A stretch of 64,000 nt of DNA from Escherichia coli (lineage in GTDB: Bacteria > Pseudomonadota > Gammaproteobacteria > Enterobacterales > Enterobacteriaceae): the NCBI RefSeq assembly GCF_003018255.1, contig NZ_CP027440.1, one strand, 5' to 3'. Of this stretch, positions 30,241 through 38,473 are shown piece after piece; position 1 is the first letter of the stretch; every line of letters begins with the position of its first letter. The position numbers were made by a program, and so were the translations under genes. The notes under the pieces were generated by a model. That model had not been told where the DNA came from. It ran no database searches and was given only the letters and a program-made list of their open reading frames with translations.

Positions 30241-33200
30241 ATGAGCGGAAAACCGGCGGCGCGTCAGGGCGACATGACGCAGTATGGCGGTAGCATTGTC
30301 CAGGGTTCTGCCGGGGTACGTATTGGTGCCCCCACCGGTGTGGCCTGTTCGGTGTGCCCCGGCGGGGTGACGTCCGGTCATCCGGTCAATCCGCTGCTCG
30401 GTGCGAAGGTCCTTCCCGGCGAAACCGACCTTGCCCTGCCCGGCCCGCTGCCGTTCATTCTCTCCCGCACCTACAGCAGTTACCGGACAAAAACGCCCGC
30501 GCCGGTGGGGAGCCTCGGCCCCGGCTGGAAAATGCCTGCGGATATCCGCTTACAGCTGCGCGATAACACACTGATACTCAGTGATAACGGCGGCAGAAGC
30601 CTGTATTTTGAGCACCTGTTTCCCGGTGAGGACGGTTACAGCCGCAGCGAGTCACTCTGGCTGGTGCGCGGCGGCGTGGCGAAACTGGATGAAGGTCACC
30701 GGCTGGCCGCACTCTGGCAGGCGCTGCCGGAAGAGCTTCGCCTGAGTCCGCATCGTTATCTGGCGACGAACAGTCCGCAGGGGCCGTGGTGGGTATTCGG
30801 CTGGTGTGAGCGGGTGCCGGAGGCGGATGAGGTGCTGCCTGCGCCGCTGCCGCCGTACCGGATACTGACCGGGCTGGTGGACCGCTTCGGGCGCACACAG
30901 ACGTTTCACCGTGAGGCTGGCGGCGAATTCAGCGGCGAAATCACCGGCGTGACCGACGGCGCAGGCCGTCACTTCCGGCTGGTACTGACCACGCAGGCGC
31001 TGCGGGCAGAAGAGGCCCGGCAGAAGGCCACTTCCGGCGGGACGGAACCGTCCGCTTTTCCTGATACCCAGCCGGACTACACGGAATATGGCCGGGACAA
31101 CGGTATCCGTCTGTCTGCCGTGTGGCTGACGCACGACCCGGAATACCCGGAGAATTTACCTGCCGCGCCGCTGGTACGCTATGGCTGGACGCCGCGCGGC
31201 GAACTGGCGGCGGTGTATGACCGCAGCAATACACAGGTGCGCAGCTTTACTTACGATGATAAATACCGGGGCCGGATGGTGGCGCACCGTCACACGGGCC
31301 GGCCGGAAATCCGTTACCGTTACGACAGTGACGGGCGGGTGACAGAACAGCTAAACCCGGCAGGCTTAAGCTACACGTATCAGTATGAGAAAGACCACAT
31401 CACCATCACCGACAGCCTGGACCGCCGTGAAGTGCTGCACACGCAGGGCGAAGGCGGGCTGAAGCGGGTGGTGAAAAAGGAACACGCGGACGGCAGCGTC
31501 ACGCAGAGTCAGTTTGACGCGGTGGGCAGGCTTAAGGCACAGACGGATGCCGCAGGCCGGACGACTGAGTACAGCCCGGATGTGGTGACCGGACTCATCA
31601 CGCGCATCACCACGCCGGATGGCAGGGCATCGGCGTTTTACTATAACCACCACAGCCAGTTAACGTCAGCCACCGGGACTGACGGGCTGGAGTTGCGCAG
31701 GGAATATGATGAATCCAGCCGTCTGATTCAGGAAACTGCCCCTGACGGCGATATCACCCGCTACCGTTATGATAATCCACACAGTGACTTACCCTGCGCA
31801 ACGGACGATGCCACCGGCAGCCGGAAAACCATGACATGGAGCCGTTACGGTCAGTTGCTGACCGTCACTGACTGTTCCGGTTATGTAACCCGTTATGACC
31901 ATGACCGTTTTGGTCAGATGACGGCGGCGCACCGCGAGGAAGGGCTGAGTCAGTATCGCGCATACGACAGCCGTGGACAGTTAATTGCGGTGAAAGACAT
32001 GCAGGGCCATGAAACGCGGTATGAATACAACGCCGCCGGTGACCTGACCGCCGTCATTGCCCCGGACGGCAGCAGAAACGGGACACAGTACGATACGTGG
32101 GGAAAGGCCATCCGTACCACGCAGGGTGGTCTGACGCGCAGTATGGAATACGATGCTGCCGGACGGGTCATCCGCCTGACCAGTGAAAACGGCAGCCACA
32201 CCACCTTCCGTTACGATGTACTCGACCGGCTGATACAGGAAACCGGTTTTGACGGCCGCACACAGCGTTATCATCACGACCTGACCGGTAAACTTATCCG
32301 CAGCGAGGATGAGGGGCTGGTCACCCACTGGCACTATGACGAAGCAGACCGCATCACGCACCGCACCGTGAAGGGTGAAACCGCAGAACAGTGGCGGTAC
32401 GACGAACGCGGCTGGCTGACAGGCATCAGCCATCTCAGCGAAGGGCACCGGGTGACGGTGCATTACAGGTATGATGAGAAAGGCCGCCTGACCGGTGAGC
32501 GCCAGACGGTGCATCACCCGCAGACGGAAGCACTGCTCTGGCAGCATGAGACCAGACATGCGTACAACGCGCAGGGGCTGGCGAACCGCTGTATACCGGA
32601 CAGCCTGCCCGCCGTGGAATGGCTGACTTACGGCAGCGGCTGGCTGGCAGGCATGAAACTCGGCGACACACCGCTGGTGGATTTCACCCGTGACCGCCTG
32701 CACCGGGAAACGCTGCGCAGCTTCGGCCGTTATGAACTCACCACCGCTTATACCTCTGCCGGGCAGTTACAGAGCCAGCACCTGAACAGCCTGCAGTATG
32801 ACCGCGATTACACCTGGAACGACAACGGCGAACTCATCCGCATCAGCAGCCCGCGACAGACCCGGAGTTACAGCTACAGCGACTCCGGCAGGCTGACCGG
32901 CGTCCACACCACCACCTCAAATCTGGATATCCGCATCCCGTATGCCACGGACCCGGCAGGTAACCGCCTGCCCGACCCGGAGCTGCACCCGGACAGCACC
33001 CTCAGCATGTGGCCGGATAACCGTATCGCCCGTGACGCGCACTATCTTTACCGGTATGACCGTCACGGCAGGCTGACAGAGAAAACCGACCTCATCCCGG
33101 AAGGGGTTATCCGCACGGATGATGAGCGGACTCACCGGTACCATTACGACAGCCGGCACCGGCTGGTGCACTACACGCGGACACAATATGCAGAGCCGCT

Positions 33201-34158
33201 GGTCGAAAGTCGCTATCTTTACGACCCGCTGGGCCGCAGGGTGGCAAAACGGGTATGGCGGCGTGAACGGGACCTGACGGGCTGGATGTCGCTGTCACGG
33301 AAACCGGAAGTGACCTGGTACGGCTGGGACGGCGACCGGCTGACCACGATACAGAACGACAGAACCCGCATCCAGACGGTTTATCAGCCGGGGAGCTTCA
33401 CGCCACTCATCAGGGTCGAAACCGCCACCGGAGAGCTGGCGAAAACGCAGCGCCGCAGCCTGGCGGATGCCCTTCAGCAGTCCGGCGGCGAAGACGGTGG
33501 CAGTGTGGTGTTCCCGCCGGTGCTGGTGCAGATGCTCGACCGGCTGGAAAGTGAAATCCTGGCTGACCGGGTGAGTGAGGAAAGCCGCCGCTGGCTGGCA
33601 TCGTGCGGCCTGACGGTGGAGCAGATACAAAACCAGATGGACCCGGTGTACACGCCGGCGCGAAAAATCCACCTGTACCACTGCGACCATCGCGGCCTGC
33701 CGCTGGCGCTTGTCAGCACGGAAGGGGCAACAGAATGGTGCGCAGAATACGATGAATGGGGCAACCTGCTGAATGAAGAGAACCCGCACCAGCTGCAGCA
33801 GCTCATCCGCCTGCCGGGTCAGCAGTATGATGAGGAGTCCGGCCTCTATTACAACCGCCACCGCTATTATGACCCGCTGCAGGGGCGGTATATCACTCAG
33901 GATCCGATTGGGCTTAAGGGGGGATGGAATTTTTATCAGTATCCGTTGAATCCGATCACTAATATAGATCCTTTAGGATTAGAAACACTAAAATGCATTA
34001 AGCCACTGCATTCAATGGGCGGAACTGGTGAAAGAAGCGGTCCAGATATATGGGGGAATCCGTTCTATCATCAATATCTTTGTGTCCCAGATGGTAAAGG
34101 GGACTATACTTGTGGTGGCCAAGACCAACGGGGAGAATCAAAAGGAGATGGTCTATAG
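30241..34158 (+). CDS. rhsB: Rhs family protein (RhsB-locus): N-terminal region, YD-repeat core ending at PxxxxDPxGL, C-terminal toxin domain truncated by an in-frame TAG
   Basis: 1305 codons; many YD repeats (RYRYD, RYDH, YEYN, TFRYD ...); core-end motif [11 protein letters not shown] near 33945-33977; GC-rich core and AT-rich C-terminus; located between nikR and yhhJ. Confidence 0.88.
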
Positions 34159-34434
34159 GGGCCAGGTAAAGCAAGTAATGATACAAAAGAAGCTGCTGGC
34201 CGTTGTGACCTCGTTGAAACCGATAATAGTTGTGTGGAGAACTGTTTAAAAGGGAAGTTTAAAGAGGTAAGGCCGCGTTATTCTGTATTGCCTGATATAT
34301 TCACACCTATAAATTTAGGGCTATTTAAAAACTGCCAAGACTGGTCTAATGATTCTTTAGAAACATGTAAGATGAAGTGCTCCGGAAATAACATTGGACG
34401 TTTTATTAGATTTGTATTTACCGGAGTGATGTAA
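34159..34434 (+). other. Same-frame continuation of the Rhs C-terminal domain after the TAG (Cys-rich, uncharacterised)
   Basis: No stop in the rhs frame from 34159 to TAA at 34432-34434; encodes GPGKASNDTKEAAGRCDLVETDNSCVENCLKGKF ...; no Shine-Dalgarno before the internal GTG. Confidence 0.55.
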
Positions 34435-34760
34435 TGAAATGTATTATTTTTTTATTCAGAGCTATATGGCTGGCTTTATCGCTTTTAATACTATTCTTTT
34501 CCATGCATAGACTTTCACTATTAGACTCCACTCGTGATGTGAGCGAGTTAATTAGTCTCATGTCTTATGGAATGATGGTAATATGTTTTCCAACAGGCAT
34601 AGTATTCTTTATTGCTCTAATATTTATAGGGACTGTTTCAGACATTATTGGCGTAAGGATTGATAGTAAGTATATTATGGCGATAATAATATGGCTTTAT
34701 TTTCTGTCAGGAGGGTATATTCAATGGTTTGTATTAAGTAAGCGCATTATAAACAAATAA
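34434..34760 (+). CDS. Putative Rhs immunity protein (small 3-TM membrane protein)
   Basis: 108 aa; ATG overlaps the upstream TAA (TAATG); GGAG Shine-Dalgarno 7 nt upstream; three hydrophobic helices; AT-rich. Confidence 0.6.
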   Translation: MKCIIFLFRAIWLALSLLILFFSMHRLSLLDSTRDVSELISLMSYGMMVICFPTGIVFFIALIFIGTVSDIIGVRIDSKYIMAIIIWLYFLSGGYIQWFVLSKRIINK

Positions 34761-34794
34761 ATTAAGTTAATTGCTCTTGTTATTATATGTAACC

Positions 34795-35275
34795 TGGGCA
34801 TTGATATCCCGTATGCCACAGACCCGGCAGGCAACCGCCTGCCCGACCCGGAGCTGCACCCGGACAGCACCCTCAGCATGTGGCCGGATAACCGTATCGC
34901 CCGTGACGCGCACTATCTTTACCGGTATGACCGTCACGGCAGGCTGACAGAGAAAACCGACCTCATCCCGGAAGGGGTTATCCGCACGGATGATGAGCGG
35001 ACTCACCGGTACCATTACGACAGCCGGCACCGGCTGGTGCACTACACGCGGACACAATATGCAGAGCCGCTGGTCGAAAGCCGCTATCTTTACGACCCGC
35101 TGGGCCGCAGGGTGGCAAAACGGGTGTGGCGGCGTGAACGGGACCTGACGGGCTGGATGTCGCTGTCACGGAAACCGGAAGTGACCTGGTACGGCTGGGA
35201 CGGCGACCGGCTGACCACGATACAGAACGACAGAACCCGCATCCAGACGGTTTATCAGCCGGGGAGCTTCACGCC
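34795..35275 (+). pseudogene. Displaced rhs core fragment (near-identical copy of 32930-33407)
   Basis: ORF 34878-35312 encodes [26 protein letters not shown] ... QPGSFTP, matching the internal rhsB segment; the copy ends abruptly at the H-repeat junction. Confidence 0.8.
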
Positions 35276-36570
35276 CAGGGAAAGATCATCAGAAGTACAC
35301 TTTTTGTACTAAGTAATTCGCATTTTATGTTTAAAAATCGAGATATTCCTCATTACCTGAAGCTGTTTTTTATTGCGTATACATGATCAAATACTCCTTA
35401 CATAATTAAGGAGAACAAAATGGAACTTAAAAAATTGATGGAACATATTTCTATTATCCCCGATTACAGACAAGCCTGGAAAGTGGAACATAAATTGTCG
35501 GATATTCTACTGTTGACTATTTGTGCCGTTATTTCTGGTGCAGAAGGCTGGGAAGATATAGAGGATTTTGGGGAAACACATCTCGATTTTTTAAAACAAT
35601 ATGGTGATTTTGAAAATGGTATTCCTGTTCACGATACCATCGCCAGAGTTGTATCCTGTATCAGTCCTTCAAAATTTCACGAGTGCTTTATTAACTGGAT
35701 GCGAGATTGCCATACTTCAGATGATAAAGACGTCATCGCAATTGATGGAAAAACACTCCGGCATTCTTATGGCAAGAGTCGCCGCAGGGGAGCGATTCAT
35801 GTCATTAGTGCGTTCTCAACAATGCACAGTCTGGTCATCGGACAGATCAGGACGGATGAGAAATCCAATGAGATTACAGCTATCCCTGAACTTCTTAACA
35901 TGCTGGATATTAAAGGAAAAATAATCACAACTGATGCAATGGGTTGCCAGAAAGATATTGCAGAGAAGATACAAAAACAGGGCGGTGATTATTTATTCGC
36001 TGTAAAAGGAAATCAGGGGCGGCTAAATAAAGCCTTTGAGGAAAAATTCCCACTGAAAGAATTAAATAATCCAGAGCATGACAGTTACGCAATTAGTGAA
36101 AAGAGTCACGGCAGAGAAGAAATCCGTCTTCACATTGTTTGCGATGTCCCTGATGAACTTATTGATTTCACGTTTGAATGGAAAGGTCTGAAGAAATTAT
36201 GCGTGGCAGTCTCCTTTCGGTCAATAATAGCAGAACAAAAGAAAGAGCCAGAAATGACGGTCAGATATTATATCAGTTCTGCTGATTTAACCGCAGAGAA
36301 GTTCGCCATAGCAATCCGAAACCACTGGCACGTGGAGAATAAGCTGCACTGGCGTCTGGACGTGGTAATGAATGAAGACGACTGCAAAATAAGAAGAGGA
36401 AATGCAGCAGAATTATTTTCAGGGATACGGCACATTGCTATTAATATTTTGACGAATGATAAGGTATTCAAGGCAGGGTTAAGACGTAAGATGCGAAAAG
36501 CAGCCATGGACAGAAACTATCTCGCGTCAGTCCTTGCGGGGAGCGGGCTTTCGTAATCTTGCCCTGATCA
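35268..36570 (+). mobile_element. H-repeat (H-rpt) element, ISAs1 family
   Basis: Contains the 378-aa transposase ORF; both flanks are repeated in the second copy downstream. Confidence 0.75.
35420..36556 (+). CDS. yhhI: H-repeat-associated ISAs1-family transposase (YhhI-like)
   Basis: 378 aa, [32 protein letters not shown] ..., DDE transposase-like. Confidence 0.85.
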
Positions 36571-36611
36571 GACCACCGTTGATCACCATATCCATGAGTT
36601 TATGAATAAAG

Positions 36612-37192
36612 GGCAGGGAAAGATCACGCAACGCTGCTTTTTTGTACTAAATAATTCGCACTAAATATTCAATAATTGAGATATTCCTTATTACCTAAAG
36701 CTGTTTTCCATTGCTTATACATGATCAAATACTCCTTACATAATTAAGGAGAACAAAATGGAACTTAAAAAATTGATGGAACATATTTCTATTATCCCCG
36801 ATTACAGACAAGCCTGGAAAGTGGAGCATAAATTGTCAGATATTCTACTGTTGACTATTTGTGCCGTTATTTCTGGTGCAGAAGGTTGGGAAGATATAGA
36901 GGATTTTGGGGAAACTCATCTCGATTTTTTGAAGCAATATGGTGATTTTGAAAATGGTATTCCTGTTCACGATACCATTGCCAGAGTTGTATCCTGTATC
37001 AGTCCTGAAAAATTTCACGAGTGCTTTATTAACTGGATGCGTGACTGCCATTCTTCAGATGATAAAGACGTCATTGTAATTGATGGAAAAACGCTCCGGC
37101 ACTCTTATGACAAGAGTCGCCGCAGGGGAGCGATTCATGTCATTTCTCGCGTCAGTCCTTGCGGGGAGCGGGCTTTCGTAATCTTGCCCTGA
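36612..37192 (+). mobile_element. Second, internally deleted H-repeat copy
   Basis: Same 5' flank and first ~130 codons as the first copy (36758-37141), then joined directly to the element's 3' terminus ([11 protein letters not shown] coding end). Confidence 0.75.
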
Positions 37193-37209
37193 ATACCGGA
37201 CTGAGTATA

Positions 37210-37244
<35 letters not shown>

Positions 37245-37345
37245 TGGTCAGTTCATAAACGCCTTATCCGGCCTAAAAAAAACTAAAATTCAATAAATTG
37301 CACCAATGCGTAGACCCTATAAGCTTACGCATCGGGCAACTGTAA

Positions 37346-38473
37346 TTACGCCATTGTCCCAATTGTCTTCCTGAATCTCAACAGTGCGATGGTGAAAAAC
37401 GCGCCGCCAATTGCCATCAGTGTCAGGAACTGCGGCCAGACGATTTCGAATCCGGCACCACGGTAGAGAATGGCCTGCGCGAGGCTAACAAAGTGTGTCG
37501 TCGGCATGGTCAGCATAATGTCCTGCACCATCTGCGGCATACTTTCGCGCGGCGTGGAACCACCGGAAAGCATTTGCAGCGGCAGCAGCACCAGAATCAC
37601 CAGCAGCCCCAGTTGCGGCATTGAACGCGCTATCGTCCCCATAAAAATACCGATTGACGTGGTGGCAAACAGACTGAGCGCCACGCCCAGCATAAACAGC
37701 GGGATCGAGCCTTCTATCGGTACGCCCAGCACGCCTTTTACCATCAGCACCAGCGATAATCCCGACACCACCAGCACCACCAGCCCCATCGACCAGACCT
37801 TTGCCATCATGATCTCAAACGGCGTTATCGGCATCACCAGTAAGTGTTCCACCGTGCCGTGTTCACGCTCGCGGATCAGCGCCGATCCGGTCAATACAAT
37901 CGCCAGCATGGTAATGTTGTTGATGATCGCCATCACCCCGCCAAACCACGCGGGATCAAGGTTCGGGTTAAAGCGCATCCGTGTTTCCAGCGATACCAAC
38001 GGTTCGCTGTTATCACGGTAGCGCGCGACAAAGCTGTTCACTTCACCGTTGATAATATTCTGGATATACCCATTGCCGGTAAATGCCTGGCTCATGCGCG
38101 TGGCATCGACGTTCACCTGAATATCCGGCTGGCGTCCGGCGAGGACATCACGCTGAAAATTAGGCGGAATATTTATCGCGAAGGTATAACGTCCGGCGTC
38201 CAGCCCGGCATCCATCTCATCGGCGGTGATCATCTCCGGTGGCAAAAACCACGGGCGATAGAAGCTGTTAACGATCCGGTTCGATAACTGCGATTGATCC
38301 ATATCGGCAATGGCGATCGGCGCGAGGTTCAACGATCCTGGCGTAACGGTCGCTGACGAATACACCGACACCGTAAACGAGAAGACAATCAGCGTCAGCA
38401 TCGCTTTATCACCGAGCAGACTGCGCAACTCTTTGATACCCAGATTAAAAATATTACGTAAATGGCGCATCAT
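37346..38473 (-). CDS. yhhJ: ABC-2 type transporter permease YhhJ
   Basis: Start at MMRHLRNIF; ATG overlaps the rbbA stop (ATGA); multi-TM, 375 aa. Confidence 0.85.

Follow-up and report, generated by a model that had tools for sequence, protein, structure and literature searches.

The closest described relatives of the locus considered here are the H-rpt elements of the Rhs loci of Escherichia coli K-12. H-rpts of 1291 bp, each with an ORF of 1134 bp, were reportedly recognised in RhsB and RhsE by Zhao et al. in 1993, with three defective copies said to lie in tandem in RhsC; the latter are H-rptC1-C2-C3 (ybfQ, ybfL and ybfD). The element at RhsB, H-rptB (yhhI), is listed as ISEc1, a member of the ISAs1 family. 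Members of that family are, in ISfinder terms, ∼1.2-1.5 kb in length, with a single ORF and short imperfect inverted repeats starting with CAGGG, and the family tolerates missing target-site duplications. According to the E. coli W genome paper (PMC3032704), which cites Zhao et al. 1993 on the point, H-rpt-bearing tips appear in the ISfinder list although transposition of an H-rpt has never been observed. Displacement of the C-terminal tip at rhs loci, and the orphan tips associated with it, have been described by Jackson et al. 2009 (PMC2935791).

The window analysed here, a stretch of 64,000 nucleotides of E. coli DNA, contains at positions 30241-38470 an E. coli Rhs element situated between nikR and yhhJ-rbbA, which is the RhsB position. 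Genes within the region are arranged in the order nikR, rhs, ybfB, an orphan core fragment, two H-rpts and yhhJ, such that the H-rpts follow the rhs core, the tip and the immunity genes and border the conserved chromosome; the same distal placement of H-rpts is seen in K-12 RhsB, K-12 RhsC and the nfrB-side array of strain DETEC-S792. A 2.3-kb probe comprising 35100-37400 is 100% identical to the corresponding sequence of strain JNE112863, for which PGAP gives the order rhsC, ybfB, a partial 'RHS element protein' (the orphan fragment), yhhI, an incomplete ISAs1 transposase and yhhJ, the yhhI product being designated 'ISAs1-like element ISEc1 family transposase'. The arrangement is already annotated in RefSeq by NCBI PGAP, and is of a known kind. 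Features at the distal end of the locus are as follows.

34806..35275, plus strand: orphan Rhs core fragment, ybfO-like, with its 3' end cut by copy 1
35276-36566, plus strand: copy 1, full-length H-rpt/ISEc1 element (ISAs1 family), 1291 bp, from the inverted-repeat scan
35276-35288 and 36554-36566: left and right inverted repeats (IRL and IRR) of copy 1, 13 bp each
35420-36556, plus strand: intact transposase gene, 378 aa, from the ORF list
36567-36613, plus strand: spacer of 47 bp, remnant of an IS630-family transposase pseudogene, from PGAP annotation in other genomes
36614-37191, plus strand: copy 2 (the mini element), internal-deletion derivative of an H-rpt, 578 bp, from the inverted-repeat scan and alignment
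36614-36626 and 37179-37191: left and right inverted repeats of copy 2
36758-37192, plus strand: residual ORF of copy 2, 144 aa, comprising 129 transposase codons and an out-of-frame tail
37192..37345, no strand assigned: conserved right flank (AATACCGGACTGAGTAT...), running up to where yhhJ ends
37346-38470, minus strand: yhhJ, with coordinates from PGAP

The orphan fragment is 97-98% identical to both the main rhs core (32920-33404) and K-12 ybfO, and homology to both stops at 35275, immediately 5' of the left inverted repeat of copy 1. The fragment has lost its own tip, everything after the codon ending ...PGSFTP having been replaced by copy 1, and the original prediction that the element marks the point at which the rhs fragment was cut is accurate to the base (35275/35276).

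A number of additional observations were made on the sequences to either side of the H-rpts. Positions 33860-35275, comprising the tip, ybfB and the beginning of the orphan fragment, are 98-100% identical to K-12 RhsC (rhsC-ybfB-ybfO), so that an RhsC-type tip cassette is located at the RhsB site, between nikR and yhhJ. The rhs ORF of the window (30241-34158) contains a TAG at 34157 where JNE112863 has TGG, which represents a nonsense change and leaves the RhsC-type toxin tip truncated; the ORF stops at 34158, as opposed to 34434 for the intact 1397-aa gene annotated by PGAP in JNE112863, and the TAG/TGG substitution is the sole difference in the 601 nt compared between the two. The downstream ybfB gene (34434-34760) is intact. 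On the distal side, the spacer between the mini element and yhhJ (37191-37280) matches sequences that are annotated under IS1397 copies in other genomes, and carries REP-like motifs (GCCTTATCCGGCCTA), probably as a REP/BIME cluster.

Scanning for inverted repeats revealed that both H-rpts are bounded by CAGGG-type terminal repeats of 13 bp, with 11/13 positions matching. In copy 1 the left repeat is CAGGGAAAGATCA and the reverse complement of the right repeat is CAGGGCAAGATTA, the right repeat ending in ...TAATCTTGCCCTG. The 378-aa transposase encoded between them is intact, as predicted originally, scoring 412.5 bits against the NCBIfam profile NF033564 'ISAs1 family transposase' (cut-off 70) and containing the Pfam domains DDE_Tnp_1_assoc (PF13808) and DDE_Tnp_1 (PF01609). 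Candidate DDE residues are D109 (IDGK), D172 (TTDA) and E306 (HVEN), which presumably form the catalytic triad. The protein is identical to K-12 YhhI at 370/378 residues, with 8 differences, and the element as a whole shows 96.7% nucleotide identity with H-rptB over 1291 nt. With a length of 1291 bp, one ORF of 378 aa and 13-bp inverted repeats, copy 1 has the attributes of an ISAs1 element, and both copies are H-rpt/ISAs1-family elements.

Both copies also contain a 7-bp inverted repeat, CTCCTTA-CATAAT-TAAGGAG (35394-35413 and 36732-36751), in which the Shine-Dalgarno sequence of the transposase gene is paired with sequence 5' of it and a -10-like hexamer forms the loop. By analogy with some other IS elements, the resultant hairpin may occlude the ribosome-binding site on read-through transcripts.

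The search for target-site duplications suggested at the outset failed to reveal any at either copy, be it between the flanks of copy 1 (...CTTCACGCC / ATCAGACC...) or those of copy 2 (...AATAAAGGG / AATACCGG...), nor when the left flank of copy 1 was compared with the right flank of copy 2, as for a composite element. K-12 H-rptB is likewise without a target-site duplication. Their absence is not disqualifying for membership of the ISAs1 family, and fits later rearrangement of the flanks.

Alignment of the two copies confirmed that the second arose from an H-rpt by internal deletion, with both ends kept. Its inverted repeats do not differ from those of copy 1, nt 1-531 of copy 1 align to 36614-37144 with ∼93% identity (BLAST E=0), and nt 1245-1291 align to 37145-37191 with 100% identity, a repeat that is far beyond chance. 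The segment missing from copy 2 corresponds to positions 35807-36519 of copy 1, or 713 nt, and the junction, at 37144/37145, shows zero shared bases when checked for microhomology. Since 713 is not divisible by 3, the 3' end of copy 2 is read out of frame, as a tail of 15 residues in the residual ORF. The original prediction had the reading frame jump directly to the 11-residue coding terminus of the element; the DNA for this terminus is present in copy 2 but is read in another frame. The two ORFs have 129 codons in common, and the serine of AIHVIS, initially regarded as shared, matches only by chance, being encoded by AGT in copy 1 and by TCT in copy 2.

Of the candidate catalytic residues, the residual ORF retains the first aspartate alone, together with the N-terminal DDE_Tnp_1_assoc domain. 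It scores 135.1 bits against NF033564 (cut-off 70), with the match ending after profile position 102/314, and in JNE112863 is annotated by PGAP as an ISAs1 family transposase, 'incomplete; missing C-terminus'. The 144-aa ORF is a pseudogene. Truncated transposases regulate or inhibit transposition in some other IS families, and a product comprising DDE_Tnp_1_assoc alone could feasibly have been kept as a regulator or inhibitor of ISEc1 transposition; the ORF is open, with the AAGGAG ribosome-binding site of copy 1, in 5/5 copies examined, and the element is stable at 578 bp in 275 genomes. Such a function seems very unlikely, however. Most of the changes that distinguish the ORF between strains are non-synonymous (H87Y, H127Y, E2K and R-to-Q, compared with ∼2 synonymous changes), which is the pattern of a pseudogene, and the tail of the ORF came about by accident, through the shift of frame. 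In the region, 7 promoter-like matches were counted, against 5.5 ± 2.1 expected, and indeed the promoter and terminator scan of the region revealed nothing above chance.

The origin of the mini element was addressed by comparing the copies with each other, with K-12 H-rptB, and with other genomes. The original prediction described tandem elements, implying duplication, with a deletion in the second copy, which could then be mobilised in trans by the transposase of the first. The two H-rpts are indeed in direct orientation, but do not abut, the 47-bp IS630 relic (36567-36613) lying between them. Their shared 5' part is strongly different in the first ∼40 nt past the left inverted repeat. Overall, 40/578 positions differ, 22 of them within the first 100 nt, and the resulting identity of 93.1% is lower than that between copy 2 and K-12 H-rptB (95.3%).

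Genome searches were conducted with complete RefSeq E. coli genomes only (n=5,426). A 60-nt probe centred on the deletion junction, used with an E-value tightened to retain spanning matches only, located the junction in 275/5,426 genomes, with a single occurrence in each (275 places in all) and no matches on plasmids. Looser searches gave inflated counts (406 genomes with a 98-nt probe, and 296 with the 60-nt probe at E<=1e-5), because two half-matches are joined in ybfD-type H-rpts, which have a different, smaller deletion. A probe combining the junction with the yhhJ-side flank also identified 275 genomes (274 with a longer flank). In strains N3, ETEC4067, 7/2 and DETEC-S792 the mini element is 578 bp long without indels, at 97.2-100% identity. 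Conversely, the left junction of copy 1 (rhs fragment/IRL) is present in only 3/5,426 genomes and the right junction (IRR/47 bp) in the same three, namely JNE112863, JNE23-011 and DETEC-S792, leaving ∼272 genomes that have the mini element without copy 1. Finally, the right junction, CCCTG|AATAC(C/A)GGACTGAGTAT, is common to K-12, where it bounds a full-length element, and to N3, ETEC4067 and the window, where it bounds the mini element.

These data bear directly on derivation of copy 2 from its neighbour and mobilisation in trans, which together we regard as extremely improbable. Both inverted repeats of the mini element are intact and identical to those of copy 1, an intact transposase gene is located 47 bp away, and the last 47-48 nt of the two copies are 100% identical, all of which speaks in favour of the original model. 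However, the copies differ at many positions, concentrated at the 5' end, the spacer that separates them is of foreign origin, and the mini element is widespread in genomes devoid of copy 1. Similarly, a mobilised element should not be found once per genome, always with the yhhJ flank, and target duplications are absent. Tandem duplication followed by mobilisation in trans is largely refuted by the junction counts, the divergence and the spacer. The mini element does resemble a MITE in retaining both inverted repeats with its transposase inactivated, but copies at several sites were not found, each of the 275 genomes having it in one place. In principle it could, having kept both inverted repeats, be used by the transposase of copy 1, although there is no sign of past movement.

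The junction counts, the shared right junction and the greater identity to H-rptB indicate instead that the mini element is older than copy 1 and not its offspring. To judge from these comparisons, copy 2 is an old in-place deletion allele of a resident H-rpt, and copy 1 is a late arrival. The yhhJ-proximal element would then be the ancestral resident of the site, as suggested by the full-length H-rpt that occupies the identical right junction in K-12. In one ancestor a single event, devoid of microhomology, would have deleted 713 internal bases of this resident, with loss of the greater part of its catalytic domain and a shift of frame; the identical junctions in all carriers point to a single origin. 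The 578-bp relic would since have been passed on in place, either by descent or by recombination at the locus, to ∼5% of E. coli, with the full-length copy 1 coming later, in a rare lineage.

The 47-bp spacer is informative as to the prior state of the site. The sequence was found in 460 E. coli genomes and, among the matches listed, lies within a 129-bp relic annotated by PGAP as 'IS630 family transposase', with the exception of the three tandem-carrying genomes, in which no feature is annotated at the spacer. In strain N3 the full IS630 relic is found directly 5' of the same mini element, beside yhhJ, whereas in strain 7/2 an IS1 occupies the same relic, in place of an H-rpt, which indicates that the relic and the mini element together constitute the older haplotype. 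Separately, the same relic precedes a full-length H-rpt at another Rhs locus in ETEC4067 (L006, 5001-5060), but there it continues for 12 bp more before the junction (…AATAAAGGGAAGTTAAAGCCC|CAGGG) than it does next to yhhJ; the offset could reflect a deletion of 12 bp or, alternatively, an independent second insertion into this relic.

Copy 1 is joined to unrelated DNA at the exact terminal bases of both of its inverted repeats, with an rhs core fragment to the left and the middle of the IS630 relic to the right. Precise junctions at the inverted-repeat ends, unrelated flanks and the lack of target duplications are collectively suggestive of an IS-associated deletion, of which copy 1 would be the remainder. 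The deletion could have occurred by recombination between two directly oriented H-rpts, or by intramolecular transposition by one H-rpt. Either route would have removed the tip of the orphan, its immunity gene and the left part of the IS630 relic; in K-12 RhsC the stretch corresponding to the lost part comprises the rest of ybfO, and ybfC. Any transposase-dependent step is an assumption, H-rpt transposition never having been observed (PMC3032704), and we infer the mechanism of the deletion from the junctions and flanks. The steps by which copy 1 reached its place, and their sequence, are likewise putative. Within the 5,426 complete E. coli genomes no intermediate was identified: an empty site, in which the rhs flank is fused directly to the 47 bp, was not found (0/5,426), nor was any genome in which the left part of the relic is joined to a left end of the copy 1 type; the latter search returned only two-piece matches of the ETEC4067 type, with a relic that is 12 bp longer and a different H-rpt.

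A donor identical to copy 1 was sought elsewhere, but the best non-syntenic match, at 98.4%, adjoins nfrB in DETEC-S792 and is not a recent sibling of copy 1. This match is a further full-length H-rpt (L009, 7001-8291), located at the distal edge of a different Rhs array and directly adjoining the conserved nfrB gene (annotated 'nrfB' in the record); RhsB, RhsC and the nfrB array of DETEC-S792 display the same pattern of an H-rpt at the outer Rhs boundary. Comparison with the syntenic copy in DETEC-S792 (L008, 6182-7472) revealed 0 mismatches in the first 400 nt of copy 1, followed by 30/891. The mosaic suggests gene conversion by other H-rpt copies, and recombination certainly acts on these elements.

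An alternative to local deletion is that copy 1 was imported together with the RhsC-type tip, ybfB and the truncated orphan, by recombination between Rhs loci or strains, without any transposase-dependent step in this lineage. The Rhs core would have served as the left arm and an H-rpt or the relic as the right, with H-rpts acting mainly as portable homology. Consistent with such an import, an RhsC-type cassette is present at the RhsB site, each of the strains examined has a different interior between its Rhs core and its terminal H-rpt but a constant H-rpt/yhhJ junction, and the mosaic structure of copy 1 between lineages shows homologous exchange. In addition, other Rhs arrays also end in H-rpts, by ybgA in K-12 and by nfrB in DETEC-S792, and a tip-displacement model with a circular intermediate exists for rhs (PMC2935791). 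The right join, however, links the terminal base of the right inverted repeat to the middle of the IS630 relic, a position without homology, and precision at an inverted-repeat end is the mark of a junction made by transposase at some time; moreover, no donor with the left junction of copy 1 was found in the 5,426 genomes. Import as a block is, on balance, somewhat unlikely. A related and rather doubtful proposal is that the H-rpt is generally a fixed distal homology arm, and the Rhs core the other arm, for swaps of tip and immunity cassettes across loci and strains. Were this reading true, such exchanges would have left as their scars the tandem, the mosaic structure of copy 1 and the presence of an RhsC-type cassette at the RhsB site. 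The history of a resident mini element, ancestral to the site, to which copy 1 was added later as the product of an IS-associated deletion, is the explanation that we favour as a whole, and consider highly probable.

The structure, then, is real and of a long-known kind, whereas local derivation of the second copy and its mobilisation in trans are unsupported. The region represents an ordinary case of an Rhs toxin locus whose edge has undergone IS decay and rearrangement, and is of little consequence other than for sound annotation. Its modest value is that the 578-bp deletion allele at yhhJ provides a dated marker, a character of probable single origin that is present in ∼5% of complete E. 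coli genomes, and the full copy and mini element in tandem mark a rare lineage of 3 genomes. More broadly, the boundary between the H-rpt and yhhJ is fixed, and everything between that boundary and the Rhs core has been replaced repeatedly.

Comparison with H-rpt copies at other rhs loci, as recommended originally, bore out that K-12 RhsB and RhsC harbour elements of the same kind. K-12 H-rptB has the length of 1291 bp and the inverted repeats of copy 1, occupies the same chromosomal site, and has a right junction to yhhJ identical to that of the mini element. It differs in being a single full-length element, whereas the window has the 578-bp form at that position and a full-length copy upstream, and in its left flank. 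In K-12 RhsC, where tandem truncated and deleted H-rpt copies were seen directly, the likeness lies in direct tandem H-rpts at the distal Rhs end, with truncations and internal deletions; K-12 ybfD, for example, is without an equivalent of 36187-36499 of the window. However, the RhsC copies abut without a spacer, none is intact and their deletions are others, whereas in the window one copy is intact and a 47-bp relic intervenes. Compared with MITEs and other non-autonomous IS derivatives, the mini element is similarly short, with both inverted repeats and no working transposase, but it is single in each genome, at one fixed locus and without target duplications, and does not behave like a mobilised family. 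With respect to the orphan tips of rhs loci (PMC2935791), the window has the expected partial core fragment downstream of the main rhs gene and immunity gene, although here the orphan has copy 1 in place of its own tip; and, as in tip displacement (PMC2935791), the site carries the tip of another locus type, that of RhsC.
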